This document shows, one piece after another, positions 9,000 through 32,848 of a DNA stretch of 64,000 nucleotides. Origin of the DNA: a virus. Lineage: Duplodnaviria; Caudoviricetes. Under the pieces are notes generated by a model. The model did not search any database. It saw only the letters and a list, made by a program, of their open reading frames with translations, and was not told where the DNA came from. The translations under genes and the position numbers were made by a program. Numbering within the stretch: position 1 is the first letter of the stretch; each line of letters starts with the position of its first letter. Location: positions 1 through 64,000 of IMG/VR virus record IMGVR_UViG_3300021326_000217; one strand, given 5' to 3'.

Positions 9000-9061
9000 A
9001 TTCGGTCATCTCCTTTTTTTGTGAATTTTTAGTGCAAGTTCAAAAAAGTTCTTAAAAACTA

Positions 9062-9090
9062 TTGACAAAAGTTCTATATAGTGCTATTAT
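9062..9090 (+). promoter_or_regulatory. SigA promoter for the early rightward operon
   Basis: TTGACA(9062-9067)-N17-TATTAT(9085-9090). Confidence 0.8.
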
Positions 9091-9121
9091 ATTTATGAAC
9101 TCACTTGAACTTTGCTTTTTT

Positions 9122-9150
9122 ATTATAACGCACGAATTTGAATTTGTCAA
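9122..9150 (-). promoter_or_regulatory. SigA promoter for the repressor operon
   Basis: Perfect TTGACA-N17-TATAAT on the minus strand (plus-strand TGTCAA 9145-9150, ATTATA 9122-9127). Confidence 0.8.
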
Positions 9151-9212
9151 TAGGAAAGTTCAAAAAAGTTCAAAATACTTCTATTCTTTTTGAAGGGAGG
9201 CACTGCAAGCGT

Positions 9213-18992: not shown

Positions 18993-20328
18993 CTATCAAA
19001 CCTATGCAACGGCTTTTGTGGAACAACATCCCATCGCCGCCGTGTTCCTTGATATGGGACTTGGTAAGAGCGTAATCACCCTGACCGCCATATACGACCT
19101 TTGCTTTGATTATTATGAGGTGTCTAAAGTGCTTGTCATCGCTCCGCTTCGAGTAGCGAGAGATACATGGAAGGACGAAATCGAAAAATGGGAACACCTG
19201 AACGGACTTTCATATTCGGTGGCAGTTGGAACGGAAGCTGAACGCAAAGCGGCACTTTCAAAAAAGGCTACGGTGTATATCATAAACCGAGAGAACGTTC
19301 AGTGGCTTGTTGACAGCGGACTTCCATTCGATTATGACATGGTGGTGATTGACGAGCTTTCATCCTTCAAATCGCATCAGGCAAAACGATTCAGAAGCCT
19401 TATGAAAGTAAGACCAACGGTAAAGCGCATGGTCGGACTTACGGGAACGCCATCGTCAAACGGGCTTATGGATTTATGGGCTGAATTCAAACTGCTTGAT
19501 ATGGGCAAACGCCTCGGACGGTTTATAACCCATTACCGTGACGAATTTTTCCTTCCCGACAAGCGAAACGCACAGGTGATATTTTCCTACAAGCCGAAAG
19601 ACGGTGCGGAGGATGAAATCTATAAACGCATATCGGACATCACGATTTCCATGCGAAGCACCGACTACCTGGAGATGCCTGAATGCATTATGAACACCGT
19701 GAAGGTCACGCTTTCCGAAAAGGAACGGGAGGTGTACGACACTTTCAAGCGTGAGCTTGTGGTGTCACTAAACGGGAACGAGGTCGATGCAGGTAATGCG
19801 GCGGCTTTGTCGGGCAAGCTCTCCCAAATGGCAAACGGGGCTGTGTACGGTGAGGAAAAGGATGTCTTTCCCATCCACGACCGAAAGCTTGATGCTTTGG
19901 AGGACTTAATTGAAGCCGCCAACGGCAAACCTGTTCTTGTGGCGTATTGGTATAAGCACGACCTTGAACGAATAAAAAAGAGGTTTACCGTCCGTGAAAT
20001 AAAAACCTCAAAGGACATAGCCGATTGGAACAGCGGCAGTATCCCTGTTGCGGTTATCCATCCTGCATCGGCAGGTCACGGACTAAACCTTCAGGCAGGT
20101 GGCTCGACCTTGATATGGTTTGGAATCACATGGAGCTTGGAGCTTTACCAACAAACCAACGGACGGTTATGGCGGCAGGGACAGAAATCCGATACGGTCG
20201 TGATACACCATATTATAACAAATGGCACGATTGATGAGAAAATCATGAAAGCCTTAAACGATAAGGACAGAACGCAGACCGCATTGATTGAGGCGGTCAA
20301 AGCAGAGATTGGAGGTAAATCAATATGA
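18973..20328 (+). CDS. SNF2/DEAD-like helicase
   Basis: FLDMGLGKS, VIDELS, GLTGTP, SAGHGLNLQ, QTNGRLWRQGQ. Confidence 0.92.
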   Translation: MKYKPHDYQTYATAFVEQHPIAAVFLDMGLGKSVITLTAIYDLCFDYYEVSKVLVIAPLRVARDTWKDEIEKWEHLNGLSYSVAVGTEAERKAALSKKATVYIINRENVQWLVDSGLPFDYDMVVIDELSSFKSHQAKRFRSLMKVRPTVKRMVGLTGTPSSNGLMDLWAEFKLLDMGKRLGRFITHYRDEFFLPDKRNAQVIFSYKPKDGAEDEIYKRISDITISMRSTDYLEMPECIMNTVKVTLSEKEREVYDTFKRELVVSLNGNEVDAGNAAALSGKLSQMANGAVYGEEKDVFPIHDRKLDALEDLIEAANGKPVLVAYWYKHDLERIKKRFTVREIKTSKDIADWNSGSIPVAVIHPASAGHGLNLQAGGSTLIWFGITWSLELYQQTNGRLWRQGQKSDTVVIHHIITNGTIDEKIMKALNDKDRTQTALIEAVKAEIGGKSI

Positions 20329-20762
20329 CGAGTAAAGAATATTTATCACAGGCATACCAACTTGACAAACGCATAAACGCAAAAATCAGTCAAGTGGCTT
20401 CTTTGAATGAGCTTGCAACAAAGTGTACTTCAACAATTACAGGAATGCCTCATGCGCCGAGTAAAAGCACATCGACAATGGCTGACACGATTACAAAAAT
20501 CATTGATTTGGAACATGAAATCAATAGTGACATCGACAGGCTTGTCGACCTGAAGCGTGAAATGGTACGGGCGATTAAGGCTGTCGGGAATACCGAATAC
20601 CAGACCATACTTGAACTGCGGTACTTATGTTTTGAATCGTGGGAACAGATCTCTATGGCATTGCATTTGAGTATTCAGCACACCTTCCGACTTCACTCCC
20701 GTGCCTTGAAGGAATTTAAAATTCCGCAAAAAAAAATAAAAGTGGAGAGTAAATGTGATTGA
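20325..20762 (+). CDS. DUF1492/ArpU-like late transcriptional regulator
   Basis: KEYLSQAY.LDKRINAK...ILELRYLCFESWEQI...SIQH.FRLH..AL; position at the end of the replication module. Confidence 0.8.
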   Translation: MTSKEYLSQAYQLDKRINAKISQVASLNELATKCTSTITGMPHAPSKSTSTMADTITKIIDLEHEINSDIDRLVDLKREMVRAIKAVGNTEYQTILELRYLCFESWEQISMALHLSIQHTFRLHSRALKEFKIPQKKIKVESKCD

Positions 20763-20844
20763 ATGAGAGTATGGCATTATGGTATAATGTAAAATGTCAA
20801 GGAATGCAGGATAAGGAACACTAAATCCATAAATCTCCTTTTTT

Positions 20845-20878
20845 GAAAGCCCGTGCAGGAAAAACTGCATGGGCTTTC
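20845..20878 (+). terminator. Strong hairpin after the replication module
   Basis: GAAAGCCCGTGCAG-gaaaaa-CTGCATGGGCTTTC; weak downstream U-tract. Confidence 0.5.
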
Positions 20879-21000
20879 CTGTCCTTGTACGATGGTGTCT
20901 GACATTGTGACATCATCCGCAAAAATTAAAAATCATGTACGATGATGTGAGATATGGTCACATCATTTTTTATTTTCACACAGAAAGGAGGGATAACCCC

Positions 21001-21390
21001 ATGCCCCTGAAACCAAAACGACCGTGTTCGTTCCCTGGCTGTCCCCGATTAACCCACGGACGGTTTTGTGAGGAACACGCCAAAGCAGAAGCAAAGAGGT
21101 ACGAGAAGTACGACCGTGACCCTGCGATGCGTAAACGCTATGGCAAAGCATGGCAGGTCATTCGTGACAGATACATAGCGGCGCATCCTCTGTGCGAGGT
21201 GTGCAAGCGAAGCGGCAAGCTCACCCCTGCGGAAGAGGTACACCACATCAAACCGCTGTCACAAGGTGGAACGAACGCAGAGGACAACCTCATGTCCCTT
21301 TGCAAGGTGTGCCACTCCGAGATTACTGCTCGGGAAGGCGGTCGATGGACACCAAAACACAGACGGCAGGGGCGGTCTCAATCTCTGTGA
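21001..21390 (+). CDS. HNH endonuclease (packaging accessory)
   Basis: CEVC...EEVHHIKPLSQGGTN...NLMSLCKVCH; ATG at 21001 after AAGGAGG. Confidence 0.9.
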   Translation: MPLKPKRPCSFPGCPRLTHGRFCEEHAKAEAKRYEKYDRDPAMRKRYGKAWQVIRDRYIAAHPLCEVCKRSGKLTPAEEVHHIKPLSQGGTNAEDNLMSLCKVCHSEITAREGGRWTPKHRRQGRSQSL

Positions 21391-21440
21391 GCCTCCGCTG
21401 ACTGAACGGGCGCGGGGCTTCGTGTATAAAAATTTCGGTT
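21368..21440 (+). other. Candidate cos region
   Basis: GC-rich GGGGCGGTC...AACGGGCGCGGGGCTTCGTGT between HNH and terS, the usual cos position in HNH-terS-terL phages. Confidence 0.45.
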
Positions 21441-21484
21441 CAAACGCCCTATTAAACCCAAGCAAAAACGGAGGTGATTTCAAA

Positions 21485-22051
21485 ATGGCAAAAGACGGTA
21501 CTAACAGAGGCGGCAGACGGGTACGAGCAGGAGGCAAACCCGATGCGCTTGCCGATAAAATACTAAACGGTAAATCCGCAAAGGTTATGGGACTTCCATA
21601 TACAGAACTGGACGGCAGTGATGACCTCGGTGAGGTTTCGGATTTGGAAGGAACTGATATGCCAAACCCAAGCGAATATTTGAGTGCTATGCAGAGGGAC
21701 GGAAAGCCACTCGGCGCAGACATTATATTTAGGGAAACTTGGGACTGGCTGAAAAGCCGAGGCTGTGAAAAGCTCGTCAATCCACGCCTTTTGGAAAGCT
21801 ACTCACAGGCGTTTGCTCGTTTTATTCAGTGCGAACAGGCGGTCACTGATTACGGCTTGCTCGGAAAGCACCCCACTACGGGCGGTGCGATTACAAGCCC
21901 GTTCGTAACCATGAGCCAGTCTTTTCAAAAGCAAGCAAATGTGTTGTGGTATGAAATATTTGAAATTGTCAAGCAGAATTGCACTACAGCTTTCGTGGGC
22001 AATCCGCAGGACGATATGATGGAGCGACTGTTAAACGCTCGGAAAGGATAA
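21485..22051 (+). CDS. terS: Terminase small subunit (P27 family)
   Basis: MAKDGTNRGGRR..AG.KP N-terminus; LLESYSQAFARFIQCE; follows HNH. Confidence 0.85.
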   Translation: MAKDGTNRGGRRVRAGGKPDALADKILNGKSAKVMGLPYTELDGSDDLGEVSDLEGTDMPNPSEYLSAMQRDGKPLGADIIFRETWDWLKSRGCEKLVNPRLLESYSQAFARFIQCEQAVTDYGLLGKHPTTGGAITSPFVTMSQSFQKQANVLWYEIFEIVKQNCTTAFVGNPQDDMMERLLNARKG

Positions 22052-22055
22052 GATT

Positions 22056-22844
22056 ATGTTTGAAAAAGTAAACCCTGCTCACCCCGATAAGGTGGCAGAC
22101 AGAATTGCAGGTGCGCTTGTCGACCTTGCATACGAAAAAGAGGAAAACCCGAAAATCGCCGTGGAAGTCTTGATAGGACACGGCGTTTGTCATGTCATTG
22201 CAGAATCGTCCGTGGAACTTGATGCGGTCGCAGTTTGTAAGGCTGTTCATAGAATTGCAGGAAATGACTTAATGGTGGATTTCAGATGCGTAAAACAGGA
22301 CAGTCACCTTGCCGCAAACCAAGCGGACGGTTTTCGGTGCGGCGATAACGGCATATTTAAAGGTATGCCCATTACCGAGGAGCAGAAAGCTCTGACCGAA
22401 ATTGCAAAAAGTGTGTATAACACATACCCGTGTGACGGCAAGTACATTTTAGATGAGGCTCGCCTCATTATTTGCCAGAGCAATGCAAGCACCGAGGAAC
22501 TGAAAAGCACATATCCCCATGCCGAAATAAATCCGCTCGGCTTTTGGACTGGCGGCACGGATGTGGACACAGGTGCGACCAACCGAAAGCTCGGAAGCGA
22601 TATGGCAGACAGCGTGACAGGCGGCGGTCTGCACGGCAAAGACCTCTCGAAAGCCGATGTCAGCGTAAACATCTATGCATGGATGAAGGCACAGGAAACA
22701 CACAAACCTGTGGAGCTTTGCTGTGCCATTGGCGATGAGACCGTTGACGGAAAGGCGTATTCCGAAATCGTGGAAATAGCAAGAGATTATATCCGCTCCG
22801 TTGGCGGCTTTGAGAAGTTTGCGGAATGGGGGCTTGTCAGATGA
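22056..22844 (+). CDS. metK: Shortened phage S-adenosylmethionine synthetase homologue
   Basis: EKVNPAHPDKVADRI, GDNGIF, DTGATNRKL, GGGLHGKDLSKADVS motifs; 262 aa. Confidence 0.85.
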   Translation: MFEKVNPAHPDKVADRIAGALVDLAYEKEENPKIAVEVLIGHGVCHVIAESSVELDAVAVCKAVHRIAGNDLMVDFRCVKQDSHLAANQADGFRCGDNGIFKGMPITEEQKALTEIAKSVYNTYPCDGKYILDEARLIICQSNASTEELKSTYPHAEINPLGFWTGGTDVDTGATNRKLGSDMADSVTGGGLHGKDLSKADVSVNIYAWMKAQETHKPVELCCAIGDETVDGKAYSEIVEIARDYIRSVGGFEKFAEWGLVR

Positions 22845-24094
22845 AAACAACAACCGAAATGGAGCTTGTTTCTATTGAGAAGCTCGTTCCTTATGTGAAT
22901 AACGCCCGTACCCATTCACCTGCACAGATTACCAAACTGCGCTCGTCTCTGCGTGAATTCGGATTTATCAACCCCGTTATAATCGACAGGGATTTTAATG
23001 TTATAGCAGGTCACGGCAGAATTATGGCGGCGAAAGAAGAAGGCATTACGGAAGTGCCGTGTGTTTTTGCCGACTACTTAACCGAGGCACAGAAAAAAGC
23101 ATATATCATTGCAGACAACCGCATGGCTATGGATGCAGGTTGGGACGAAGAACTCCTGCGAGTAGAAATTGAAGCTCTGCAGGGCATGGATTTTGACCCG
23201 TCTCTGACAGGCTTTGACGAGAAGGAACTCGCCACACTCTTTAATAATGGCATAGAAGCAAAAGACGATGACTTTGATGTGTCGGCAGAACTTGAAAAGC
23301 CGCCGCTGACACGAAACGGTGATGTTTGGATTTTAGGAAAGCACCGTCTCGTTTGCGGTGATAGTACAAAGGCAGAAACCTTTGAAGCTCTGATGCAAGG
23401 CGAAAAGGCAAACCTTGTTATAACTGACCCTCCGTATAATGTCAATTATGAAGGCTCGGCAGGAAAAATCAAAAATGATAATATGGCTGACGATAAATTT
23501 TATAACTTCCTGCTTGATGCCTTTAAGAATACGGAAGCGGCGATGGCTGACGATGCGAGTATTTATGTTTTCCATGCCGACACCGAGGGCTTGAATTTCA
23601 GGAAGGCTTTTCAAGACAGCGGTTTTTATCTTTCAGGTACTTGTATATGGAAGAAGCAATCGCTTGTTCTCGGTCGCTCCCCGTATCAATGGCAACATGA
23701 GCCTATCCTTTTCGGTTGGAAAAAGAAAGGCAAGCACCAGTGGTACACGGGGCGAAAAGAATCGACCATTTGGGAATTTGACAAACCCAAGAAAAATGCC
23801 GACCATCCGACCATGAAGCCGATTCCGCTCCTTGCATACCCGATTACAAATTCAAGTATGTCCAATTGCATCGTGCTTGACCCGTTTGGTGGAAGCGGCT
23901 CGACCCTTATCGCCTGTCAGCAGACGGACAGAATTTGCCGTACCATTGAATTGGACGAGAAATTCTGCGATGTCATCGTGAAACGGTATATTGAACAGGT
24001 CGGCTCGGATGATGAAGTCAAGGTTATCAGAGATAATCAGACTATACCATACAAAGATATACACGACAGCAATGAGGAAATCCCTCTGTTTTAA
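22841..24094 (+). CDS. ParB-N domain plus N6/N4 DNA methyltransferase (beta class)
   Basis: PYVNNARTH...GFINPVIID..IAGHGR (ParB-like); TDPPY motif IV; HPTMKP; LDPFGGSGST motif I. Confidence 0.92.
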   Translation: MKTTTEMELVSIEKLVPYVNNARTHSPAQITKLRSSLREFGFINPVIIDRDFNVIAGHGRIMAAKEEGITEVPCVFADYLTEAQKKAYIIADNRMAMDAGWDEELLRVEIEALQGMDFDPSLTGFDEKELATLFNNGIEAKDDDFDVSAELEKPPLTRNGDVWILGKHRLVCGDSTKAETFEALMQGEKANLVITDPPYNVNYEGSAGKIKNDNMADDKFYNFLLDAFKNTEAAMADDASIYVFHADTEGLNFRKAFQDSGFYLSGTCIWKKQSLVLGRSPYQWQHEPILFGWKKKGKHQWYTGRKESTIWEFDKPKKNADHPTMKPIPLLAYPITNSSMSNCIVLDPFGGSGSTLIACQQTDRICRTIELDEKFCDVIVKRYIEQVGSDDEVKVIRDNQTIPYKDIHDSNEEIPLF

Positions 24095-24116
24095 AGAGGA
24101 CTGAAATGCTGTAATA

Positions 24117-24194
24117 TAGACAGTTTCAAAGGCACATATTTGTGAAGTATTTAGTGTCAAAACTCTTGATAAATAAGGCGTTCAGAGTTAATAT
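24117..24194 (+). promoter_or_regulatory. Cassette promoter 1 (degenerate dyad plus SigA promoter)
   Basis: TAGACAG-N16-TTGTGAA; TTGATA(24166)-N17-TAATAT(24189). Confidence 0.65.
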
Positions 24195-24226
24195 GTGGCT
24201 AACAAAAAAGAAGGAGGTCATGTAAA

Positions 24227-24919
24227 ATGACAACGACCAATGCAAACATAAAGTTTAATGTCACAGGCGCAAAGCGCAAAGAACTCGTAAGTCTTATTGC
24301 AAACTTCACAGGGTGCGAAGCAAAGTACAAAGGCGCACCGAGCTTTGCCTACGAGGTGGACTACTTCAGCATTGACAAAAACGGAACGCTTATATTTGAT
24401 GACAGAGCCGACAGCGAGGTTATTGAAAGACTGCTCGAAATGCTCTACGACAACAGCTTCGTTGCAGAGGAAAGCGAAGCTGAAACCGACCAGCCCCAAG
24501 TAGAAGCCACAGGGCTTACGGTCGAGATACCGCTTGATAAGGTGAATGTTGGAAACCTTACAAACCTGCTTGAATCAAAAGGCGAGCTTATAAAGGAAGC
24601 ACTCGGAATAAGCGATATACGCATAGAGCTTTTGGAAGACCGAGTTACATTCCCGTGGTTTGGTGACATTGAGCCGAGCGATGCAAAGGCTTATACAGAA
24701 TTCATCGCCGCTCTATGCGCACACTCGAAAAAGCTCACGAGAATCAACGCTGTGGAAACAAAAGCAGAAAACAAAAAATACGCATTCCGCTGTTTCCTCC
24801 TGCGCCTCGGCTTTATCGGGACGGAATATAAGGAAACGAGAAAAATCCTGCTCCGCAACCTCGAAGGAAGCTCCGCTTTCAAAAGCGGTAAGAAAAAAGA
24901 GGTGCAGAACAATGGCTGA
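24227..24919 (+). CDS. Conserved phage hypothetical sharing a C-terminal motif with the amidoligase
   Basis: KYKGAPSFAYEV; C-terminal ENKKYAFRCFLLRLGFIG. Confidence 0.75.
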   Translation: MTTTNANIKFNVTGAKRKELVSLIANFTGCEAKYKGAPSFAYEVDYFSIDKNGTLIFDDRADSEVIERLLEMLYDNSFVAEESEAETDQPQVEATGLTVEIPLDKVNVGNLTNLLESKGELIKEALGISDIRIELLEDRVTFPWFGDIEPSDAKAYTEFIAALCAHSKKLTRINAVETKAENKKYAFRCFLLRLGFIGTEYKETRKILLRNLEGSSAFKSGKKKEVQNNG

Positions 24920-25130
24920 TAAGTTTTTCACAACTACCAAATGTGACCGTTGCGGAGGCTCGCTTGAAAGCGGCAGAATAATGTCCATGTTCAATGAGGA
25001 TTGCATTTGTATGGACTGTAGTAAGAAGGAGCGAGAGCTTCCCGAATTCAAGCAAGCCGCCGAAGCCGAGCTCGCCGAAATCAAGCGTGGAAACTACAAT
25101 TTCAAGGGCATCGGATACCCCGAAAAATAG
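24912..25130 (+). CDS. 72-aa zinc-finger protein (CDRC...CMDC)
   Basis: MADKFFTTTKCDRCGGSLESGRIMSMFNEDCICMDC; AGAGGTG RBS; ATG at 24912. Confidence 0.75.
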   Translation: MADKFFTTTKCDRCGGSLESGRIMSMFNEDCICMDCSKKERELPEFKQAAEAELAEIKRGNYNFKGIGYPEK

Positions 25131-25138
25131 CTGTAATA

Positions 25139-25217
25139 TACACAATTTTAGCCTTGAAAGATTGTGTAGTATATAGGTCAGAATTGACTTGATATATACC
25201 CTTTTCAGAGGTAATAT
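25139..25217 (+). promoter_or_regulatory. Cassette promoter 2
   Basis: TACACAA(25139)-N16-TTGTGTA-N20-TTGATA(25189)-N17-TAATAT(25212). Confidence 0.8.
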
Positions 25218-25264
25218 GTGACTACAAAAAGAACAGAAAACACTTTTGAAAAGGAGTAAAAACC

Positions 25265-26206
25265 ATGAACGAAAAAACAAGAAACTTTATCGAGGAAATG
25301 AAAAAGCAGACCATCGGGATTGAAATTGAGATGGCAAACATTACAAGAGAAAAAGCCTGCAGAACGGTCGCAAAATACTACGGCACGGAAAGCACAGTAA
25401 AACATGACGGCGGCGGCTATGACACTTGGAGTTGCAAGGACACCAAAGGCAGGACTTGGAAGATAACGAGGGACGTTAGCATACAGGCACGGACGGACAG
25501 CGAAAAAGCAGAGCTTGGAACACCCATCCTTCACTACGATGACATTGAGGACTTGCAGGAAATCGCAAGGCAGTTACGCCACGCAGGTGCGGTTTCCAAC
25601 CCACAGCACGGATGCGGTGTACATTGTCACATCGGTGCAGACGGACACACAGCAGGAACGCTCCGAAACCTCGCAAACATCATGGCAAGCCACGAAAGCC
25701 TTTTGACAAACGCATTAAGCCTTGACAGAAGCCGCATAAACAGCTACTGCAGACAGGTCGACACAAACTTCCTTACAAGGCTGAACAGAAGGAAGCCAAG
25801 GAGCATGATGGCACTTGCGGACATTTGGTACGCTGACAACAATGAGTACCGAGGCGCACATTACAACCACACACGCTACAGAATGCTAAACCTCCACGCA
25901 ACCTTTACAAAAGGAACGGTTGAATTCCGACTTTTCCAATTCGACAACCCCACGGAGGAACGCAGAGGCGGCATACACGCAGGACAGCTTAAAAGCTACA
26001 TTCAGCTTTGCCTTGCACTTTCCCAAATGGCAAAAACACAGAAAACAGCAAGCCCGAAGCCACAGCAAACCGAAAACCCGAAATACGCAATGCGAACTTG
26101 GCTCCTCCGCCTCGGATTTATCGGTGACGAATTCAAAACAGCAAGAGACCTCTTTACAAAGCGACTTGACGGGGACACAGCCTTCAGAAACGGCAGACCT
26201 GCATAA
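25265..26206 (+). CDS. Amidoligase (COOH-NH2 ligase type 2, Amidoligase_2-like)
   Basis: TIGIEIEM, WKITRDVSI, ELGTPIL, CGVHCHIG, RYRMLNLHA, GTVEFRLF. Confidence 0.88.
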   Translation: MNEKTRNFIEEMKKQTIGIEIEMANITREKACRTVAKYYGTESTVKHDGGGYDTWSCKDTKGRTWKITRDVSIQARTDSEKAELGTPILHYDDIEDLQEIARQLRHAGAVSNPQHGCGVHCHIGADGHTAGTLRNLANIMASHESLLTNALSLDRSRINSYCRQVDTNFLTRLNRRKPRSMMALADIWYADNNEYRGAHYNHTRYRMLNLHATFTKGTVEFRLFQFDNPTEERRGGIHAGQLKSYIQLCLALSQMAKTQKTASPKPQQTENPKYAMRTWLLRLGFIGDEFKTARDLFTKRLDGDTAFRNGRPA

Positions 26207-26279
26207 AGCAGAAACCCCGACACCCGACCGCTACGGCGGTCTTAAGGTGGTAGAAGACGATTTGAAAGGAGATTTTTTT

Positions 26280-26747
26280 ATGGCAAAAAGAAAGTACATC
26301 GCATACGGGAGCAACCTCAATGTTCAGCAAATGAAATGGCGATGCCCACACGCAAAAATTATGGGAACGGGTGAACTTAAGGATTGGAGGCTTCTTTTCA
26401 AAGGAAGTAAAACGGGAGCATACCTTACCATAGAAAAGTGCGAAGGCTATAGCGTACCCTTTGCGGTATGGGAGGTCAACGCAACGGACGAGGCGGCACT
26501 TGACCGCTACGAGGGATTTCCCACCTTCTATTACAAGCAGGAGCTTCCCTTCGAGTACACGGGTATAAGGACAGGCAGAACACACAAAACCAAAGGCTTC
26601 GTTTACATTATGCACGAGGACAGACCTATCGGAATTCCCTCAAAGCATTATGTTGAAGTATGCGCCACAGGTTATATGACCTTCGGTTTTAACTACGAGC
26701 GCATTCTTGAATCACTCCGCTACAGCGAGGAGGTGACGAAGGAATGA
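26280..26747 (+). CDS. Gamma-glutamylcyclotransferase (AIG2-like)
   Basis: YIAYGSNLN..QM..RCP, LDRYEG; ATG at 26280. Confidence 0.88.
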   Translation: MAKRKYIAYGSNLNVQQMKWRCPHAKIMGTGELKDWRLLFKGSKTGAYLTIEKCEGYSVPFAVWEVNATDEAALDRYEGFPTFYYKQELPFEYTGIRTGRTHKTKGFVYIMHEDRPIGIPSKHYVEVCATGYMTFGFNYERILESLRYSEEVTKE

Positions 26748-26944
26748 AGAACGGAACACATCCCGAAACCGTATGCCCGAAATGCGGCATGGTTTATTAT
26801 GAAGCACCTGCACTTTCAAGAACCGACAACAAAACACTCATCTGTCCCGATTGCGGCATCCGTGAAAGTTTGGCGGCATTCGGTCTTGGAGCGGAAGAGC
26901 AGGAACATATCATAAGAGCCATTCATGGCAGACACAAAGCGTAA
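26744..26944 (+). CDS. 66-aa zinc-finger protein (CPKC...CPDC)
   Basis: CPKCG..Y...PALSR.DN.TLICPDCG.RE. Confidence 0.75.
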   Translation: MKNGTHPETVCPKCGMVYYEAPALSRTDNKTLICPDCGIRESLAAFGLGAEEQEHIIRAIHGRHKA

Positions 26945-26956
26945 GGAGGAGCGACA

Positions 26957-27259
26957 ATGACAAAAAATGAGTTATACGACCAAATCACAGAACAGTATTA
27001 TGAATTCATCGCAGGGCTGAAAAAGCAAACGGCTTCAGAGCTTATTAAAAACGCTGAGCTTATTGCAACGACCAAACAGTTATATAAGTTTATCAAACTT
27101 AACAAGCCGTTCAGCGATGATGACACTGAATACCTTTCCCGAATCAAACGACCGCTTATAGTACTTTCAGAAGTATACAACGAAATAAGCGGCATTGACT
27201 GTGAAGTGTTTGACCGCTTGATGTTTGAGGGCAAAGGTCATGGGCTGTTTGAAGAGTGA
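26957..27259 (+). CDS. Hypothetical 100-aa helical protein
   Basis: GGAGG-like RBS; last gene before the junction hairpin. Confidence 0.65.
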   Translation: MTKNELYDQITEQYYEFIAGLKKQTASELIKNAELIATTKQLYKFIKLNKPFSDDDTEYLSRIKRPLIVLSEVYNEISGIDCEVFDRLMFEGKGHGLFEE

Positions 27260-27318
27260 AAACACCATTTCGGAACGAGCCGAAAGGCTCTGTTCCTCGT
27301 TATAAATCATACGTAATA

Positions 27319-27397
27319 TACACAATTAACGCCCTCTATATTTGTGTAGTATATATCGCTGAAATGACTTGATATATATGCGATTCAGAGGTAATAT
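27319..27397 (+). promoter_or_regulatory. Cassette promoter 3
   Basis: TACACAA(27319)-N16-TTGTGTA-N20-TTGATA(27369)-N17-TAATAT(27392). Confidence 0.8.
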
Positions 27398-27442
27398 GTG
27401 ACTACCGAAAGGGAAAACAAACAAAAATTGGAGGAAACGAAA

Positions 27443-27709
27443 ATGACAGAATTCACAACCATTGAAAAACTTGACCTTGCGATGAGTCCATCCTACGATG
27501 CGCTTGTACGCTATAAGCACCACGTTTGCTTGGCATCACTTAATTACAAGGGTGAATATGAAGCCGAGATTTACGAGTTTGTTGACGAGCCTGAAACGGA
27601 CGGCTTTTCAGAAATTGAATGCCGCCTCGCCATGACAGAAAAGGCAGACATCACATTCCATGACAGCGGCTCGGCAATCAAATGGTGCTTTGACAAGCTC
27701 GACAAATAA
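27443..27709 (+). CDS. Acidic 88-aa hypothetical (single-gene cassette)
   Basis: GGAGG RBS, ATG at 27443; own promoter and downstream hairpin. Confidence 0.75.
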   Translation: MTEFTTIEKLDLAMSPSYDALVRYKHHVCLASLNYKGEYEAEIYEFVDEPETDGFSEIECRLAMTEKADITFHDSGSAIKWCFDKLDK

Positions 27710-27765
27710 GCCGCAACCAACGCCCTGCAAAGAGCCGCAAAAAGGCTCTTTTGCTCGTCATAATA

Positions 27766-27844
27766 TACACAATAAAACCTCCGAATGTTTGTGTAATATA
27801 TAGTGTCGAAATGACTTGATATAAGTGCGTTTTAGAGGTAATAT
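27766..27844 (+). promoter_or_regulatory. Cassette promoter 4
   Basis: TACACAA(27766)-N16-TTGTGTA-N20-TTGATA(27816)-N17-TAATAT(27839). Confidence 0.8.
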
Positions 27845-27875
27845 GTACTCAACAAAAAACAAGGAGGGCAACACA

Positions 27876-28064
27876 ATGCTTAAACTTTACAAATTCTACG
27901 AACTCATTAACAGGAACGCACTGGTGACCTTGACCGAGGATACCTTGACAAAAACCTACTTTGAAGGAAGCGTTAAGGACATTCCCGACAGTTTTGACGA
28001 TTGGAACGTCACAGACTTTTGTGTTTCGGACGGCGGCGATTTTCTTTTCCACATTGCGAAATAA
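27876..28064 (+). CDS. 62-aa hypothetical
   Basis: AAGGAGG RBS, ATG at 27876. Confidence 0.7.
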   Translation: MLKLYKFYELINRNALVTLTEDTLTKTYFEGSVKDIPDSFDDWNVTDFCVSDGGDFLFHIAK

Positions 28065-28077
28065 GGAGGACACGGAA

Positions 28078-28440
28078 ATGATGAGGATTGAAGCATTTGA
28101 ACAGGCAATCGAAAACAAGGTAAAGAGCTTAAAAGCGGTCGGAATCAACCACACACTGTTTTGGGCATACCGCACGAGCATCGAAGCGGAAAACGACCTG
28201 ATTGATTTTGATGAGTGTATTTGGGAGGATGACATTGAGGAAATCGCAAACTTCCTGAAAGCAAACGGCATCATTGAATTCACGATTTCGAGCAACTTCT
28301 CAAGCCTGATACCTACCCTTGCCGAATTTGAAAAACACGGTTTCAAGATGGCAGGGCTTACAGAGGTCAACGCAAGGTACAAGGAAATCTGTTCGGACAA
28401 ACGGGCAAAGAAAAAAGCAATCCGAATGCTTAACTACTAA
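28078..28440 (+). CDS. 120-aa hypothetical (DUF7698-like, recalled), paralogue of 28614-28967
   Basis: GINHTLFWAY...I.EFTISSNFSSLIPTLAEFEK.G....LTEVN. Confidence 0.75.
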   Translation: MMRIEAFEQAIENKVKSLKAVGINHTLFWAYRTSIEAENDLIDFDECIWEDDIEEIANFLKANGIIEFTISSNFSSLIPTLAEFEKHGFKMAGLTEVNARYKEICSDKRAKKKAIRMLNY

Positions 28441-28488
28441 AATCCCGTACCGAAGGAGCCGCAGGAGGCTCTTTTGGTCGTACAAATA

Positions 28489-28567
28489 TACACAATGAAA
28501 CCTCCGCATATTTGTGTAATATATGTCTCGGAAATGACTTGATATAAGTGCGATTCAGAGGTAATAT
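28489..28567 (+). promoter_or_regulatory. Cassette promoter 5
   Basis: TACACAA(28489)-N16-TTGTGTA-N20-TTGATA(28539)-N17-TAATAT(28562). Confidence 0.8.
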
Positions 28568-28613
28568 GTACACAACAAAAGGGCAAAGCCCGAACAAAAA
28601 GGAGGAACCAGAA

Positions 28614-28967
28614 ATGGTAAAATTTTATTTAAACAAGGAGCTTTTTTCAGCGGACTACAGAGAAACGGGAATCAACCGCACAATGTTTTGGGCGGTGATG
28701 CACAGAAAGAAAACGGGCAACAAACTCCTTGATTTAAGCGAGGCAATCAACGACAACGAAATTCCAGAGCTTGTCGACACGCTCCTGCGTATGGAGGAAA
28801 AGCAATTCACGATTTCAAGCGGATTCAGCGGCTTGGTAAAAACCCTGAAGGAATTTGAAAAATACGGAGCCTACATTGTAAGCCTTACGGAAGTAAACAC
28901 ACCTCACAAGGATTACAAAACAGGCGAGCGAGAGCGAATTCCTGCATTGCTTTTGGAACTCCGATAA
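28614..28967 (+). CDS. 117-aa hypothetical (DUF7698-like, recalled), paralogue of 28078-28440
   Basis: GINRTMFWAV...QFTISSGFSGLVKTLKEFEKYG....LTEVN. Confidence 0.75.
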   Translation: MVKFYLNKELFSADYRETGINRTMFWAVMHRKKTGNKLLDLSEAINDNEIPELVDTLLRMEEKQFTISSGFSGLVKTLKEFEKYGAYIVSLTEVNTPHKDYKTGERERIPALLLELR

Positions 28968-29024
28968 AAGCCTTAAAAAAGCAAAGAACCCAAGCGGTTC
29001 TTTTGCTCGTACAAGCGCATAATA

Positions 29025-29092
29025 TACACAATGTGCTTGCTGAATATTTGTGTAGAAATGGTATTGATAAAATCCTAAAAATACGGTAATAT
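29025..29092 (+). promoter_or_regulatory. Cassette promoter 6 (dyad 11 bp closer to -35)
   Basis: TACACAA(29025)-N16-TTGTGTA-N9-TTGATA(29064)-N17-TAATAT(29087). Confidence 0.75.
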
Positions 29093-29124
29093 GGGTACAA
29101 CAAAAACGAAGGGAGTTACAAACA

Positions 29125-29340
29125 ATGTACGAAATTATTGTAAACAAGGATTCAATCAGAAGGCTTCAAAAGGACGGTGAATACCGCTTCCCAGGACTTA
29201 CAAGAGCGCAGTCAAAACAGGCGGCTACCACCCTTGCCGAAGCAACCATGAGCGAGGACAGAAAGCACGGTATTCAAAGCAATTACGGCATTGCAAGGGA
29301 TGCGTTTGGTTATTACTTTGCGGCGCAAATCAACGCCTAA
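29125..29340 (+). CDS. 71-aa hypothetical (single-gene cassette)
   Basis: GGGAG RBS; own promoter and downstream hairpins. Confidence 0.7.
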   Translation: MYEIIVNKDSIRRLQKDGEYRFPGLTRAQSKQAATTLAEATMSEDRKHGIQSNYGIARDAFGYYFAAQINA

Positions 29341-29460
29341 AAACGGCAAACACGCCCCTTACAAAGCGAACTGAACGAGCCGAGAGGCTCTGTTCCTCTC
29401 TACTGCAAGACCGAACGGTCTATTTTTTATGATTTTCCGTGCCTGTAAAATGCTGTAATA

Positions 29461-29539
29461 TACACAATTTCCTTTCCGAATATTTGTGTAGTATATGTCT
29501 CGAAAATGACTTGATATTTAGCGATTTTAGAGGTAATAT
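29461..29539 (+). promoter_or_regulatory. Cassette promoter 7
   Basis: TACACAA(29461)-N16-TTGTGTA-N20-TTGATA(29511)-N17-TAATAT(29534). Confidence 0.8.
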
Positions 29540-29584
29540 GTACACAACAAAAGGGCAAAGCCCAGATTAAAGGAGGACACAAGA

Positions 29585-29791
29585 ATGTGTGATTTAACAA
29601 AGATTTCCGAGAGGACAAACAAACTTTACAACGAGCTTGCAAGGAAGGTTTATGGAACGGACGATGAATACCGCTATATGCTTGGGGTAAACGGAATTAA
29701 CGAGGTCTGCTTCACAGACTGGCGCACACACGCCGAAATCAAAGGCAACAGGGCTATTCAGAAAGCAATCAAGGAAATCCTCGCAAAATAA
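29585..29791 (+). CDS. 68-aa hypothetical (single-gene cassette)
   Basis: AAGGAGG RBS; own promoter and downstream hairpins. Confidence 0.7.
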   Translation: MCDLTKISERTNKLYNELARKVYGTDDEYRYMLGVNGINEVCFTDWRTHAEIKGNRAIQKAIKEILAK

Positions 29792-29876
29792 AAAAACCCG
29801 AACACAACGGAGCGAGCCGAGAGGCTCTGTTCCTCTCTACAACAAGACCAATGGGTCTTTTTTTGTTGCTGTAATA

Positions 29877-29955
29877 TACACAAATTAAGCCCTGTATATT
29901 TGTGTAGTATATGTCTCTGAAATGACTTGCTATTTATAGGTTTTAGAGGTAATAT
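29877..29955 (+). promoter_or_regulatory. Cassette promoter 8
   Basis: TACACAA(29877)-N16-TTGTGTA-N20-TTGCTA(29927)-N17-TAATAT(29950). Confidence 0.8.
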
Positions 29956-29988
29956 GTACACTACAAAAAAAGAAAGGGGCAAAAAGCC

Positions 29989-30168
29989 ATGACAAAGAAA
30001 GAACTTCAAAAACTCGTAAAAATCGTAAATGAGAACGTTGTAACAATGGAAAAGAGAGCAGACCTTGAAAGGCATTACAGCGATGAATTGGACTTCTTCG
30101 ATATTGCGGTTTGGGAGCTTAAAACGGTGCTTATCGCCGCATACGAGCTTGGCAAGAAAAGCAAATAA
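29989..30168 (+). CDS. 59-aa protein (DUF6900-like, recalled), absent from the ORF track
   Basis: Hand translation MTKKELQKLVKIVNENVVTMEKRADLERHYSDELDFFDIAVWELKTVLIAAYELGKKSK. Confidence 0.7.
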   Translation: MTKKELQKLVKIVNENVVTMEKRADLERHYSDELDFFDIAVWELKTVLIAAYELGKKSK

Positions 30169-30276
30169 AAAAAAACAACGACAACCGAAAACAACGGAAC
30201 GAGCCGAAAGGCTCTGTTCCTCTCTATAGATCAGACCGAAAGGTCTATTTTTTATGCGTGGAAATGGGGTGATATT

Positions 30277-31878
30277 ATACGCAAGCTAAAAAATTACAAG
30301 CCTTCACGGTTTCTCGCTGAAGGCTCGGTGTATGATAAAACGGCGGCTGATTACGCCGTAGGCTTTATTGAATGCCTGTGCCATACCAAAGGCACATGGG
30401 CAGGAAAGCCGTTTGAACTGATTGATTGGCAGGAGCAAATCATACGGGATATTTTCGGAACGCTGAAACCTAACGGCTATCGTCAATTCAACACGGCATA
30501 TATTGAAATACCAAAGAAAATGGGAAAGAGCGAGCTTGCGGCGGCAGTCGCTCTTTTATTATGCTGTGGTGACGGCGAAGAACGAGCCGAGGTTTACGGA
30601 TGCGCCGCCGACCGACAGCAAGCATCTATCGTTTTTGAGGTGGCGGCGGACATGGTGAAAATGTGTCCTGCACTTGCAAAGCGTGTCAAAATCCTCGCCT
30701 CGCAAAAGCGGCTCGTTTTCCTTCCGACCAACAGTTTCTATCAGGTGCTGTCTGCTGAAGCCTACTCAAAGCATGGCTTTAACATACACGGTGTTGTATT
30801 TGACGAGCTTCACACGCAACCGAACAGAAAGCTCTTTGATGTTATGACAAAGGGGTCAGGCGATGCGAGGATGCAACCCTTGTATTTCCTCATCACGACC
30901 GCAGGAACTGACACCCATTCCATCTGCTACGAAACACACCAAAAGGCAGTCGATATTCTTGAAGGCAGGAAAATCGACCCGACCTTTTATCCCGTGATTT
31001 ACGGAGCAGACGAAAACGATGACTGGACAGACCCGAAGGTGTGGAAAAAGGCAAACCCCTCCCTCGGTATAACGGTTGGTATTGATAAGGTCGTGGCGGC
31101 TTGCGAATCGGCAAAACAAAACCCTGCGGAAGAAAACTCATTCAGACAGCTTCGATTAAACCAGTGGGTAAAGCAAGCTGTCAGGTGGATGCCGATGGAA
31201 AAATGGGACAAATGCTCGTTTGCAACCGATGAGGATGAACTGTACGGGCGTGTTTGCTACGGCGGACTTGACCTTTCCTCCACAACGGATATAACGGCAT
31301 TCGTACTTGTTTTTCCACCCGTGGACGAAAGCGATAAATACATTATCCTTCCGTACTTTTGGATACCCGAAGATAACATTGACCTTCGAGTACGGCGTGA
31401 CCATGTGCCGTATGACCTTTGGGAACGACAAGGGTATCTGCAAACTACCGAGGGAAATGTCGTGCATTACGGGTATATTGAGAAGTTTATCGAATCGCTT
31501 GGTGAGAAATTCAATATCCGTGAAATTGCCTTTGACCGTTGGGGTGCTGTGCAGATGGTGCAAAACCTCGAAGGTATGGGATTTACGGTCGTGCCATTCG
31601 GTCAGGGCTTTAAGGATATGTCACCACCGACCAAAGAGCTTATGAAGCTCGTGCTTGAGGAAAAGCTCGCACACGGCGGTCACCCTGTCCTTAGATGGAT
31701 GATGGATAACATATATGTCCGCACCGACCCTGCAGGAAACATAAAACCCGATAAGGAAAAATCGACAGAAAAGATTGACGGCGCAGTGGCAACCGTAATG
31801 GCTCTCGACCGTGCCATTCGGTGCGGAAACGACACAACAGAGAGTGTATATGATGAGCGAGGTCTGTTATTCATTTAA
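30277..31878 (+). CDS. terL: Terminase large subunit (probable non-canonical ATA start at 30277; ORF track gives 30328)
   Basis: Walker A IPKKMGKS, Walker B VVFDELH, ITTAG, GLDLSST.D nuclease motif, KIDGAVA. Confidence 0.95.
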   Translation: MRKLKNYKPSRFLAEGSVYDKTAADYAVGFIECLCHTKGTWAGKPFELIDWQEQIIRDIFGTLKPNGYRQFNTAYIEIPKKMGKSELAAAVALLLCCGDGEERAEVYGCAADRQQASIVFEVAADMVKMCPALAKRVKILASQKRLVFLPTNSFYQVLSAEAYSKHGFNIHGVVFDELHTQPNRKLFDVMTKGSGDARMQPLYFLITTAGTDTHSICYETHQKAVDILEGRKIDPTFYPVIYGADENDDWTDPKVWKKANPSLGITVGIDKVVAACESAKQNPAEENSFRQLRLNQWVKQAVRWMPMEKWDKCSFATDEDELYGRVCYGGLDLSSTTDITAFVLVFPPVDESDKYIILPYFWIPEDNIDLRVRRDHVPYDLWERQGYLQTTEGNVVHYGYIEKFIESLGEKFNIREIAFDRWGAVQMVQNLEGMGFTVVPFGQGFKDMSPPTKELMKLVLEEKLAHGGHPVLRWMMDNIYVRTDPAGNIKPDKEKSTEKIDGAVATVMALDRAIRCGNDTTESVYDERGLLFI

Positions 31879-32005
31879 ATAATGACAACAAGAACACCAG
31901 ACCCACTATTCCTATAATGAGTGAAAAACATCCCCAATTGCCGTCTTCCTTACCCAACCGATAAGTAAGGTACAAAAGACCGAGGAAACCCAAAAAGAAA
32001 TCCAT
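31871..32005 (-). CDS. 44-aa hydrophobic two-TM peptide, absent from the ORF track
   Basis: GGAGG RBS; MDFFLGFLGLLYLTYRLGKEDGNWGCFSLIIGIVGLVFLLSLFK; stop overlaps the terL stop. Confidence 0.65.
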   Translation of the reverse strand: MDFFLGFLGLLYLTYRLGKEDGNWGCFSLIIGIVGLVFLLSLFK

Positions 32006-32020
32006 GTTAAAAAGCCTCCT

Positions 32021-32374
32021 TTACATTATTGAGCGCAATACACTCTGGAACGTTATGTCTATTCTTATGTTCCCGTTGGTAAGCGCATATATATCAAAGT
32101 TGTCACATTCAGAAACAGCATCATAAAAGCTACTTGCATTCTGAATGATTAACTCTGATACCTCCGCTGAAATTGAGCCTAAGTTAAAGGTGGTATCAAT
32201 TTGAACGGTGACTTCCGCATTGGTTGCGCTTTGATGTAAAAAGTTTTTGAGCGCATTTGCGGCTTTGATTAGTTTGGAATAGTTGTTTATATCAACTATT
32301 TTTAATGTGGATTTTTGCAATCCGTCAACAATTGCCATTAACTCGTCAATGCTGTTTTCATTGCTGTTATTCAT
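32021..32374 (-). CDS. Hypothetical 117-aa moron protein
   Basis: AT-rich antisense ORF coupled to the upstream zinc-ribbon gene. Confidence 0.7.
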   Translation of the reverse strand: MNNSNENSIDELMAIVDGLQKSTLKIVDINNYSKLIKAANALKNFLHQSATNAEVTVQIDTTFNLGSISAEVSELIIQNASSFYDAVSECDNFDIYALTNGNIRIDITFQSVLRSIM

Positions 32375-32628
32375 TGAGCATCACCTGTCCTTTCAAAATT
32401 TGGATAGCCGCCGTGAACTGAATGTCTGTGACCTTTTGTTGCAGGATAAAGGCGCATAATTGACCGTAAGCCCTCATACAAATCAGGATACTTACGATTC
32501 TTTTTGCGACACTCTTTACACCGTTTGGGGAGTTTCATCCCATTATCGACCTTGTGGATGAACTCATCAAGTGAAATAGTAAACATACACCCACACTGCT
32601 TACATTTTTCACGCCTTACTACAAACAT
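32371..32628 (-). CDS. Zinc-ribbon protein (CKQC...PKRCKEC)
   Basis: CKQCGCMFTIS..E......GMKLPKRCKECRKK; AAGGAG RBS before ATG at 32628. Confidence 0.75.
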   Translation of the reverse strand: MFVVRREKCKQCGCMFTISLDEFIHKVDNGMKLPKRCKECRKKNRKYPDLYEGLRSIMRLYPATKGHRHSVHGGYPNFERTGDAQ

Positions 32629-32646
32629 CTTAAACAACTCCTTTCT

Positions 32647-32807
32647 CTTATAACCGCAAAGGGGCAACCCTATCGGCGGTATGTTTTTCACTTATAACCG
32701 CAAAGGGGGGGCAAAATTGTCCGTGTGGTGTTCGGCGGTTTGCCTTACACCTATTACCGTAAAGGGGTTAAATTATTAAAACTTCTTTCAGTTATAACCA
32801 TAACGGG
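32647..32807 (-). repeat. Tandem TTATAACCGCAAAGGGG-like repeats upstream of the moron
   Basis: Exact 18-bp repeat at 32647-32664 and 32691-32708; degenerate copies at 32752-32767 and 32792-32807. Confidence 0.75.
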
Positions 32808-32848
32808 TACTACATAAAAACAATTATTTTAAAGAGGTGAAATAACAC

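Follow-up and report, generated by a model that had tools for sequence, protein, structure and literature searches.

An array of eight similarly headed gene cassettes, probably co-regulated and exchangeable, between the terminase genes of a Heliusvirales prophage

We analyzed a 64,000-nt stretch of DNA (here, the window) that makes up most of a 72.7-kb provirus record in IMG/VR (IMGVR_UViG_3300021326_000217). Given its marker genes and its similarity to GenBank record PV036458, we assign the element to the Candidatus (Ca.) Heliusvirales, as a prophage of gut Clostridia. Between its terS and TerL genes lie eight cassettes in a row, each opened by the same kind of header: a two-armed inverted repeat (dyad), then -35 and -10 hexamers, then a ribosome site, followed by one to four mostly small open reading frames (ORFs). 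We consider it likely that this is a regulated array of cassettes, resembling the morons of temperate phages and the promoter-early stem-loop (PeSL) cassettes of T4-type phages, which occupies a hyperplastic site between terS and TerL and whose units are exchanged by way of homologous linkers. An initial annotation of the window had already described eight repeated modules of this composition, and our analysis bears out that description.

An exact search of all 64 kb for TACACAA-N16-TTGTGTA returned seven dyads, all on the plus strand and all in the array (Table 1); there is no further exact dyad elsewhere in the window, and shuffled sequences yield none. The eighth dyad, before the first cassette, is degenerate, with three mismatches (TAGACAG..TTGTGAA). 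Downstream of each dyad stands the promoter pattern TTGATA-N17-TAATAT, present at eight sites in the array where 0.48 would be expected. With no dyads and 0.48 promoters expected against seven and eight seen, chance is ruled out for the repeats. The -35 hexamer, which the initial annotation gave as TTGATA throughout, has this form in seven copies and reads TTGCTA in the eighth, and the positions listed there as promoter starts are the starts of the dyads. Both spacers, N16 and N17, are constant across all eight copies, and TTYAGAG lies directly 5' of the -10 in seven of the eight. Seven copies have 19 to 20 nt between the dyad and the -35; the copy at 29025 has 9 nt. The header copies are spaced 416 to 2,180 bp apart, each tied to a promoter and a ribosome site. 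Promoters, like the terminators described below, were called by consensus match and folding.

The composite of dyad and -35 was found in 36 contigs of viruses and 18 of bacterial genomes. Hosts named in their titles are for the most part Lachnospiraceae, Oscillospiraceae, Ruminococcus, and further Clostridia of the human and goat gut, and one contig is labelled Flavobacterium. One of the header-bearing prophages (L043) resides in the genome of Sporofaciens sp. SGI.106. A search with TerL contributed 80 more loci, most of them positive for the header profile. Over 122 unique headers of relatives, the conserved blocks are the dyad arms, the -35, TTYAGAG, and the -10; the bases within N16 are not conserved. 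The dyad spacer is 16 bp in nearly all copies from relatives, and in some headers (N26 variants) the left arm is placed one helical turn further out. The gap between dyad and -35 falls into classes of 19 to 20 nt (the majority), 9 to 10 nt, and 30 nt, counted over hits that were not de-duplicated. In one relative (L039, 2318-2420), a single dyad is common to two divergent header promoters, each with its -35 exactly 20 nt away. The first header, before the gene for a 230-aa protein, usually has a poor dyad across relatives. In five host genomes of 2.1 to 4.3 Mb, exact dyads occur inside prophages only. The phased distances, the sharing by divergent promoters, and the restriction to prophages suggest that the dyad is most likely the DNA site of a symmetric regulator encoded by the phage rather than by the host.

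We rejected a reading of the dyad as an RNA hairpin, because it lies upstream of the start sites and serves divergent promoters in L039; the RNA of the array has no match in Rfam. The half-sites resemble the halves of an NrdR box but lie 12 bp too far apart for that reading, which was therefore set aside. As a separate observation, a promoter of the header type (CTTGATA..TTTAGAG.TAATAT/GATATA, followed by a leader and a ribosome site) stands, in relatives, before the gene for the large serine recombinase some 20 kb downstream of TerL (G002 at 50315, G003 at 3348, G005 at 38266, G007 at 41356, G010 at 45846, G017, G021, G024, and G025). The N16 dyad is absent from these headers, wider-spaced dyad-like arms are present in G002 and G010, and the window has no such copy.

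Folding confirms stable hairpins after cassettes 2 to 8, as the initial annotation had it, with none between cassettes 1 and 2. Three of these tails are plain terminators, one is a hairpin with a GAAA loop, and three are hairpins of the latter kind followed by a short terminator with a run of six or seven U residues. The 3' arm of the tail hairpin is invariant. With G+C stems and a U-run behind them, or variants of this layout, the tails are predicted to be intrinsic terminators and their derivatives. In the window, the TerL ribosome site begins about 15 nt after the last terminator, and a similar gap of a few nt between the end of a terminator and this site was seen in at least 66 of 90 relatives. 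There is no room for a promoter between the two, so TerL would depend on transcription that passes the terminators.

Variation among relatives was examined in 53 unique complete intervals, reaching from the methylase gene (or terS) to TerL. Their length ranges from 85 to 8,729 bp, and their ORFs fall into 86 families, 58 of which are singletons. Three intervals have no header, eight have one, 29 have two, 12 have three, and the window alone has eight; at least eight headers were also counted in L052. Most relatives have one good dyad per genome. At the lower extreme, terS and TerL of L095 are 85 bp apart with no terminator, and this adjacency identifies the whole region as a hot spot of insertion within an operon. 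The closest relative (L045, 87% nucleotide identity, 98% amino acid identity in TerL) has five units. It pairs a 62-aa ORF with a following 68-aa ORF and a DUF6900 ORF with a following 71-aa ORF, all four of which head separate units in the window, and in L054 the DUF6900/71-aa pair stands in the reverse order to that in L045. The headers of the window are 86 to 96% identical to a header in another genome, compared to 61 to 91% identical to their neighbors in the array. Because the nearest relative of each header is in another phage, the array is a mosaic and not a local duplication. The two DUF7698 proteins of the array form a paralogue pair that is about 40% identical, with closer homologues elsewhere (74% in L026, 91% in L052). 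Headers and DUF7698 genes being closer to other genomes than to one another, the array was assembled from several sources. We also observed two related Heliusvirales prophages about 58 kb apart on one contig of a metagenome-assembled genome (C92 of G032; L047 at 15.7-17.4 kb and L045 at 73.6-76.3 kb), with four and three exact dyads, respectively. Such a contig is a natural setting for exchange between prophages.

A header-profile scan of related prophages had been proposed with the initial annotation, and it finds what was anticipated there: cassette number, order, and cargo vary, with some breakpoints at headers. Overall, the places at which the cargo changes between relatives are headers, Shine-Dalgarno regions, and ORF edges. 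Compared to L045, the window has an extra 1.49 kb (28081-29569), both ends of which lie inside near-identical ribosome sites, AAGGAGGAYAC. Inside this insert, a 1,016-bp block comprising cassettes 5 and 6 (28481-29496), which runs from header 5 to header 7, is 91% identical to L052, and the L052 cargo on both sides of it differs from that of the window. Between L069 and L080, exactly one ORF is swapped, from its ATG to just past its stop codon. In many other exchanges, too, a single headerless ORF is what moved, and the crossovers map to the Shine-Dalgarno region or coincide exactly with ORF borders, which shows that the unit of exchange is often the bare ORF and not the whole headered cassette. 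Relative frequencies of alignment ends (high-scoring segment pairs) were 0.61x inside ORFs, 2.65x at ORF edges, 2.25x in leaders, and 1.7x in headers. In addition, one of two phages that are 98 to 99% identical has a 989-bp insertion (L106 6348-7338, compared to L108 3382) with inverted repeats GAGTGTGTTT...AAACACACTC, which looks like a small mobile element.

In the reading that we favor, an accessory region of eight moron-like transcription units would have been inserted into the packaging and late operon of a Heliusvirales prophage. Each unit would consist of a two-fold symmetric operator, a promoter of the sigma-A type one to three helical turns downstream, a short 5' leader, a strong ribosome site, one to four ORFs that encode small cytoplasmic proteins, and, at the end, an intrinsic terminator. 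One dimeric regulator, probably encoded by the phage, would bind the operator DNA and control all units together, and the phasing of the operator favors an activator of class I type that touches RNA polymerase. The terminators would insulate the units from one another and from TerL. Headers, ribosome-site leaders, and tails would serve as short homology linkers, with exact tracts of 9 to 35 nt, and recombination between related phages at these linkers would add, remove, and reorder single ORFs or whole units.

The geometry of the header has parallels among known activators. At class I promoters, CRP binds at -61.5, -71.5, or -82.5, and phage late activators with upstream dyads include Ogr of P2 (TGT-N12-ACA near -55) and p4 of phi29. 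The array has in common with these systems a two-fold symmetric site 5' of the -35, distances that differ by a helical turn, and service to divergent promoters. It differs from them in that its half-sites and their separation of 16 bp (sometimes 26 bp) match none, and in that its core promoter is near consensus.

Several results weigh against this reading. First, the regulator protein was not found: no family tracks the dyad in the 10-kb flanks or across 14 whole phage genomes, although the dyad-present and dyad-absent classes used for this purpose are imperfect, N26 variants having been scored as absent. Fisher association of ORF families with the dyad in the 10-kb upstream flanks of 43 loci gave the A230/amidoligase family as the best (24/24 compared to 10/14, p 0.014), and in the 14 genomes no family was present in all dyad-bearing phages and absent from the rest. 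DUF1492, a sigma-70 region-4-like regulator, has two subtypes in relatives, neither of which tracks the dyad. Second, a core promoter near consensus is unusual for a promoter that depends on an activator. Third, the survey of high-identity pairs yielded only three independent clean events among near-identical phages, too few for statistics: the exact replacement of one ORF, an unrelated insertion with inverted repeats at its flanks, and a 1.2-kb insertion that interrupts a -35 and shows 4-bp microhomology, a case of illegitimate rather than homologous recombination. Fourth, the exact tracts common to junctions are short, and, since headers (1.7x) are less enriched in alignment ends than ORF edges (2.65x), selection for gene borders after random recombination could yield much of the picture.

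Three other candidates for the regulator were considered and rejected. An HTH_3-DUF7768 protein is found in both dyad classes, and only the window has its HTH part. The 230-aa first ORF was modeled with AlphaFold2 at a mean confidence (pLDDT) of 86, and the model matched no PDB fold at E <= 0.001, with a template-modeling score of about 0.2, so it lends no support to a role as a transcription factor. Two small Zn-ribbon proteins of the array are missing from many dyad-bearing relatives.

The likely requirement for passage through the terminators raises the matter of where late transcription begins. Behind the DUF1492 gene, in the window and in 33 unique relatives, we found a module of direct repeats, an extended -10 promoter, and a strong leader hairpin (fold z -5.9 in the window). 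The repeats in the spacer between DUF1492 and HNH genes are present in 2 to >14 copies, and the repeated word varies by phage (GAGAGTA, TTACAGT, ATGTCAGT, AAGCACA, and others). They were seen, for example, in L010, L013, L019, L069, and L103, with a long run of ATGTCAGT in L013. We regard this module as a candidate late-control switch. Late transcription would start at this DUF1492-associated promoter, 5' of HNH and terS, and would cross the array by antitermination or read-through, being resistant to the terminators on the way, while the headers would give the cargo its own, separately controlled expression. Lambdoid phages control their late genes through the promoter pR', the terminator tR', and the antiterminator Q. 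The Heliusvirales arrangement is similar in that a promoter, a short leader, and a terminator stand right behind a presumed late regulator gene (DUF1492) and before the packaging genes, with further terminators inside the operon. It is different in that DUF1492 is sigma region-4-like and not a Q homologue, and antitermination is here our deduction.

The strongest alternative is that the cassettes are classical morons expressed from the resting prophage, with headers that are constitutive or regulated by the host and a dyad that serves as a repressor or modulator site. The -35 and -10 near consensus would fit constitutive expression, the terminators behind the units and the double hairpin before TerL would insulate the late genes, and a lambda-like promoter-leader-terminator module 5' of HNH is what an antiterminated, moron-tolerant late operon would have. 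However, the cargo is small, cytoplasmic, and of types known from DNA modification and conjugative elements, with no membrane or secretion signal typical of lysogenic conversion or exclusion, and an operator near -60, -70, or -80 with strict phasing has the geometry of activation, not of steric repression. We regard this alternative as rather unlikely; it differs from the regulated array only in the timing and sign of control. Morons of temperate phages were reportedly described by Juhala and colleagues in 2000. By the definition of Cumby et al. (2012, PMC3594210), the array units are similar to morons in that a promoter, a gene, and a terminator separate two genes that a related phage (L095) has side by side, and in that they are independent transcription units spread by horizontal transfer. 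Typical morons have unrelated promoters, whereas here there are eight units in a row under one homologous, regulated header.

The initial annotation compared the array to an integron. In a true integron-like platform, the dyads or the tail hairpins would be sites of a dedicated recombinase, for example a serine recombinase of the prophage, that excises and inserts circles. Sites of serine recombinases are inverted repeats around a central spacer, a layout that the dyad resembles; eight directly oriented sites flank gene units; and the record encodes several resolvase-domain proteins. As in an integron, there is a row of mostly single-gene, promoter-proximal accessory units of variable number and order. 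The array is unlike an integron in that it has no adjacent tyrosine integrase, no folded sites of the attC type, and no single common promoter (Pc), each unit having its own promoter, with terminators between, and junctions that are not at a fixed recombination point. The sole match to a tyrosine recombinase (PF00589) lies at 43-510 of the 72.7-kb record, 24 kb off in a flank of low G+C, the resolvase-type genes are >25 kb from the array, and the neighbors of the array are a methylase gene and TerL. No attC-like RNA or DNA family was found at the array. With neither an adjacent recombinase nor an attC-like site, the term "integron-like" is not supported. Furthermore, most relatives have a single good dyad per genome, which leaves it without a partner, so the dyad cannot be a paired recombination site. 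A serine recombinase requires that the central dinucleotides of its sites match, whereas the center of N16 shows no conservation, the mapped junctions are found in ribosome sites, at the borders of ORFs, and at the edges of headers rather than at the dyad center, and the helical phase with the promoter, together with service to two promoters in L039, points to transcription. Dedicated site-specific recombination at the array is very improbable. What stands of the modular platform in the initial annotation is the homology of headers and tails, the variable number, order, and content, and several breakpoints at headers.

Packaging signals, in the form of repeats bound by terS or of pac or cos sites, are scarcely credible: such sites are often repeated and the array does lie between terS and TerL, but its copies are widely spaced and each tied to a promoter and ribosome site, relatives have zero to three of them, one relative with none has terS abutting TerL, and the headers of L006 stand among unrelated genes and precede different cargo. 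A recent local tandem amplification of one cassette, without functional meaning, would explain why the headers are clearly homologous, but it is already contradicted by the header and DUF7698 identities given above and by the remaining cargo ORFs, which show no match among themselves, and we give it next to no weight.

Among characterized systems, the PeSLs of T4-type phages (Arbiol et al. 2010, PMC2839356; Comeau et al. 2014, PMC4122927) come closest to the regulated array. In both, a sigma-70-type promoter and a terminator stem-loop are repeated between small non-essential ORFs in a hyperplastic region. In PeSLs, insertions, deletions, and replacements between close relatives are bounded by the motif, as some are in the array, with crossovers between the -10, the Shine-Dalgarno sequence, and the ATG in PeSLs and in AAGGAGGAYAC here. 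The composite motif, a predicted terminator or hairpin followed by a header, was counted at seven array junctions. The site between core genes is hyperplastic, as the interval lengths, the 86 families, and the insert-free relative attest. Motif-bounded changes are exemplified by the L052 block and the L045 junctions, beside which there are headerless junctions at ORF edges and one illegitimate insertion. The systems are unlike in that the array belongs to a temperate, siphovirus-type prophage of Clostridia and the PeSLs to lytic T4-type myoviruses, with unrelated sequences, and in that each promoter of the array has a phased, symmetric operator upstream of it, implying a dedicated regulator, and many of the ORFs exchanged have no header. 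The statement in the initial annotation that no system of this form has been characterized holds for Clostridial prophages, as far as we searched the literature, but PeSL cassettes follow the same logic. What is new is that the units share a phased operator, that they belong to this lineage, and that there are eight of them in a row.

A more far-reaching version of the regulated array can be offered tentatively, as a possibility. The header would be a portable element of about 100 bp, read by a symmetric activator encoded by the phage, so that any small gene placed behind it would join a co-regulated, terminator-insulated regulon. Phages of different Clostridia families would share such units, perhaps passed on as mini-circles, as a circulating pool of counter-defense and DNA-modification genes.

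In total, 13 cargo ORFs stand behind the eight headers, in groups of 2, 4, 1, 2, 1, 1, 1, and 1. They encode an amidoligase with a GGACT cyclotransferase, two Zn-ribbon proteins, Nmad4, two DUF7698 proteins, a DUF6900 protein, and several products without a family. No cargo protein has a membrane segment, and all are predicted to be soluble. The cargo families belong to a repertoire common to phages and conjugative elements, and functions in counter-defense or DNA modification are plausible. The initial annotation described the cargo as unrelated save for one pair, which agrees with the DUF7698 pair, but the 230-aa protein and the amidoligase also have a C-terminal two-helix module in common (KYAFRCFLLRLGFIG..YK..RK.LL; 24762-24819 and 26067-26124). 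Because the 230-aa protein matches positions 154-424, the middle of the 801-position PHROG profile phrog_2443 ("amidoligase enzyme"), these two may be one protein in other phages. Other cargo in relatives includes DUF4314, DUF5049, DUF7678, and a C5 methylase, and LuxS in a different phage. The LuxS case comes from L006 (4553-9376, same as L056), where three headers in another gene context precede, and would drive, unrelated small ORFs and LuxS (S-ribosylhomocysteinase); the sources are a 98.8-kb provirus record and a contig of an Oscillospiraceae metagenome-assembled genome.

Being short and easily searched for, the header can serve to locate the variable accessory genes that Heliusvirales phages have, many of which belong to unknown families shared with conjugative elements. 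The strict spacing and phasing of the operator predict that its regulator should be retrievable by DNA pull-down, and the eight copies of the array constitute an eight-fold internal replicate for promoter studies. With the array, the PeSL idea of conserved regulatory linkers as hot spots of recombination is no longer confined to lytic T4-type phages of Gram-negative bacteria but reaches temperate phages that infect gut Firmicutes.

Table 1. Positions of the array cassettes and neighboring features in the window
Feature	Position	Strand	Details
Cassette 1	24107..25130	+	dyad 24117-24146 (degenerate), -35 24166, -10 24189-24194
Cassette 1 ORFs		+	24227-24919 (230 aa); 24912-25130 (72 aa, Cys-rich); no tail hairpin
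Cassette 2	25129..27296	+	dyad 25139-25168, -35 25189, -10 25212-25217
Cassette 2 ORFs		+	Amidoligase_2 25265-26206; GGACT 26280-26747; Zn-ribbon 26744-26944; 100-aa ORF 26957-27259
Cassette 2 tail	27272-27296	+	GAAA-loop hairpin, no U-run
Cassette 3	27309..27757	+	dyad 27319-27348, -35 27369, -10 27392-27397
Cassette 3 ORF and tail		+	Nmad4 27443-27709; terminator 27727-27757
Cassette 4	27756..28484	+	dyad 27766-27795, -35 27816, -10 27839-27844
Cassette 4 ORFs and tail		+	62 aa 27876-28064; DUF7698 28078-28440; terminator 28446-28484
Cassette 5	28479..29011	+	dyad 28489-28518, -35 28539, -10 28562-28567
Cassette 5 ORF and tail		+	DUF7698 28614-28967; terminator 28980-29011
Cassette 6	29015..29428	+	dyad 29025-29054, -35 29064, -10 29087-29092
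Cassette 6 ORF and tail		+	71 aa 29125-29340; hairpin 29373-29395 and terminator 29408-29428
Cassette 7	29451..29868	+	dyad 29461-29490, -35 29511, -10 29534-29539
Cassette 7 ORF and tail		+	68 aa 29585-29791; hairpin 29809-29833 and terminator 29840-29868
Cassette 8	29867..30252	+	dyad 29877-29906, -35 (TTGCTA) 29927, -10 29950-29955
Cassette 8 ORF and tail		+	DUF6900 29989-30168; hairpin 30196-30220 and terminator 30233-30252
DUF1492 (sigma-70 region-4-like) regulator gene	20325..20762	+	Pfam PF07374, E 4.8e-6
Candidate late promoter module	20745..20877	+	GAGAGTA direct repeats; TTGAAT-N18-TATAAT with TG (20759-20788); leader hairpin about 20846-20877
HNH gene	20935-21390	+	just 5' of terS
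terS (Terminase_4)	21266..22051	+	Pfam
MetK-N-like gene	22056-22844	+	Pfam
ParB_N and N6/N4 DNA methylase gene	22826-24094	+	Pfam
TerL	30277..31878	+	Pfam TerL_ATPase and TerL_nuclease; translation and alignment; probable start codon ATA
Candidate portal ORF	32849-34219		matches ORFs at the portal position in relatives

The prophage part of the window extends from about 8.5 to 56 kb and is set off by higher G+C. It starts with a switch of the ImmA/ImmR type, a Y-family polymerase, and a small sigma-r4 protein, and continues with a DUF2800 nuclease, an Enc34-type ssDNA-binding protein, PolA, VapE, and SNF2. The packaging part consists of DUF1492, HNH, terS, a MetK-like gene, a ParB-N/methylase gene, the array, and TerL, with structural genes and an amidase 3' of TerL. 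The position between terS and TerL given in the initial annotation is right, with the addition that the MetK-like and ParB-N/methylase genes lie there as well. Heliusvirales markers present in the record are PolA, the SNF2 helicase, the DUF2800 nuclease, and TerL. DNA matches were GenBank PV0364xx records from human feces, one of which, PV036458, is classified as Ca. Heliusvirales. These phages are reported to be ubiquitous in the human gut, with a marker set that includes TerL, portal, DNA polymerase I, a helicase, and a nuclease; the paper that defines them does not mention promoters or cassettes in the terS-TerL region (PMC11283538).

TerL probably starts with the ATA codon at 30277. An alternative start is the ATT 3 bases before it, and the ORF list gives only a GTG 51 nt downstream. 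The codon aligned with this start is ATG in L045 (about 5520) and ATA in L029 and L054.

Two further observations concern other parts of the prophage. An early promoter, TTGACA-N17-TATTAT, lies at 9000-9180 beside the gene for the ImmR-like repressor, flanked by the repeats AAGTTCAAAAAAGTTC (GTTCAAAAAAGTTC repeats). This site is likely the immunity operator, and it has no relation to the cassette header or its dyad. Downstream of the array, the gap between TerL and the portal ORF (31879-32848, about 970 bp) holds two minus-strand ORFs without a Pfam match (32021-32374 and 32371-32691). Relatives have anything from no gap to one of about 1.9 kb here, which makes this a second variable spot.

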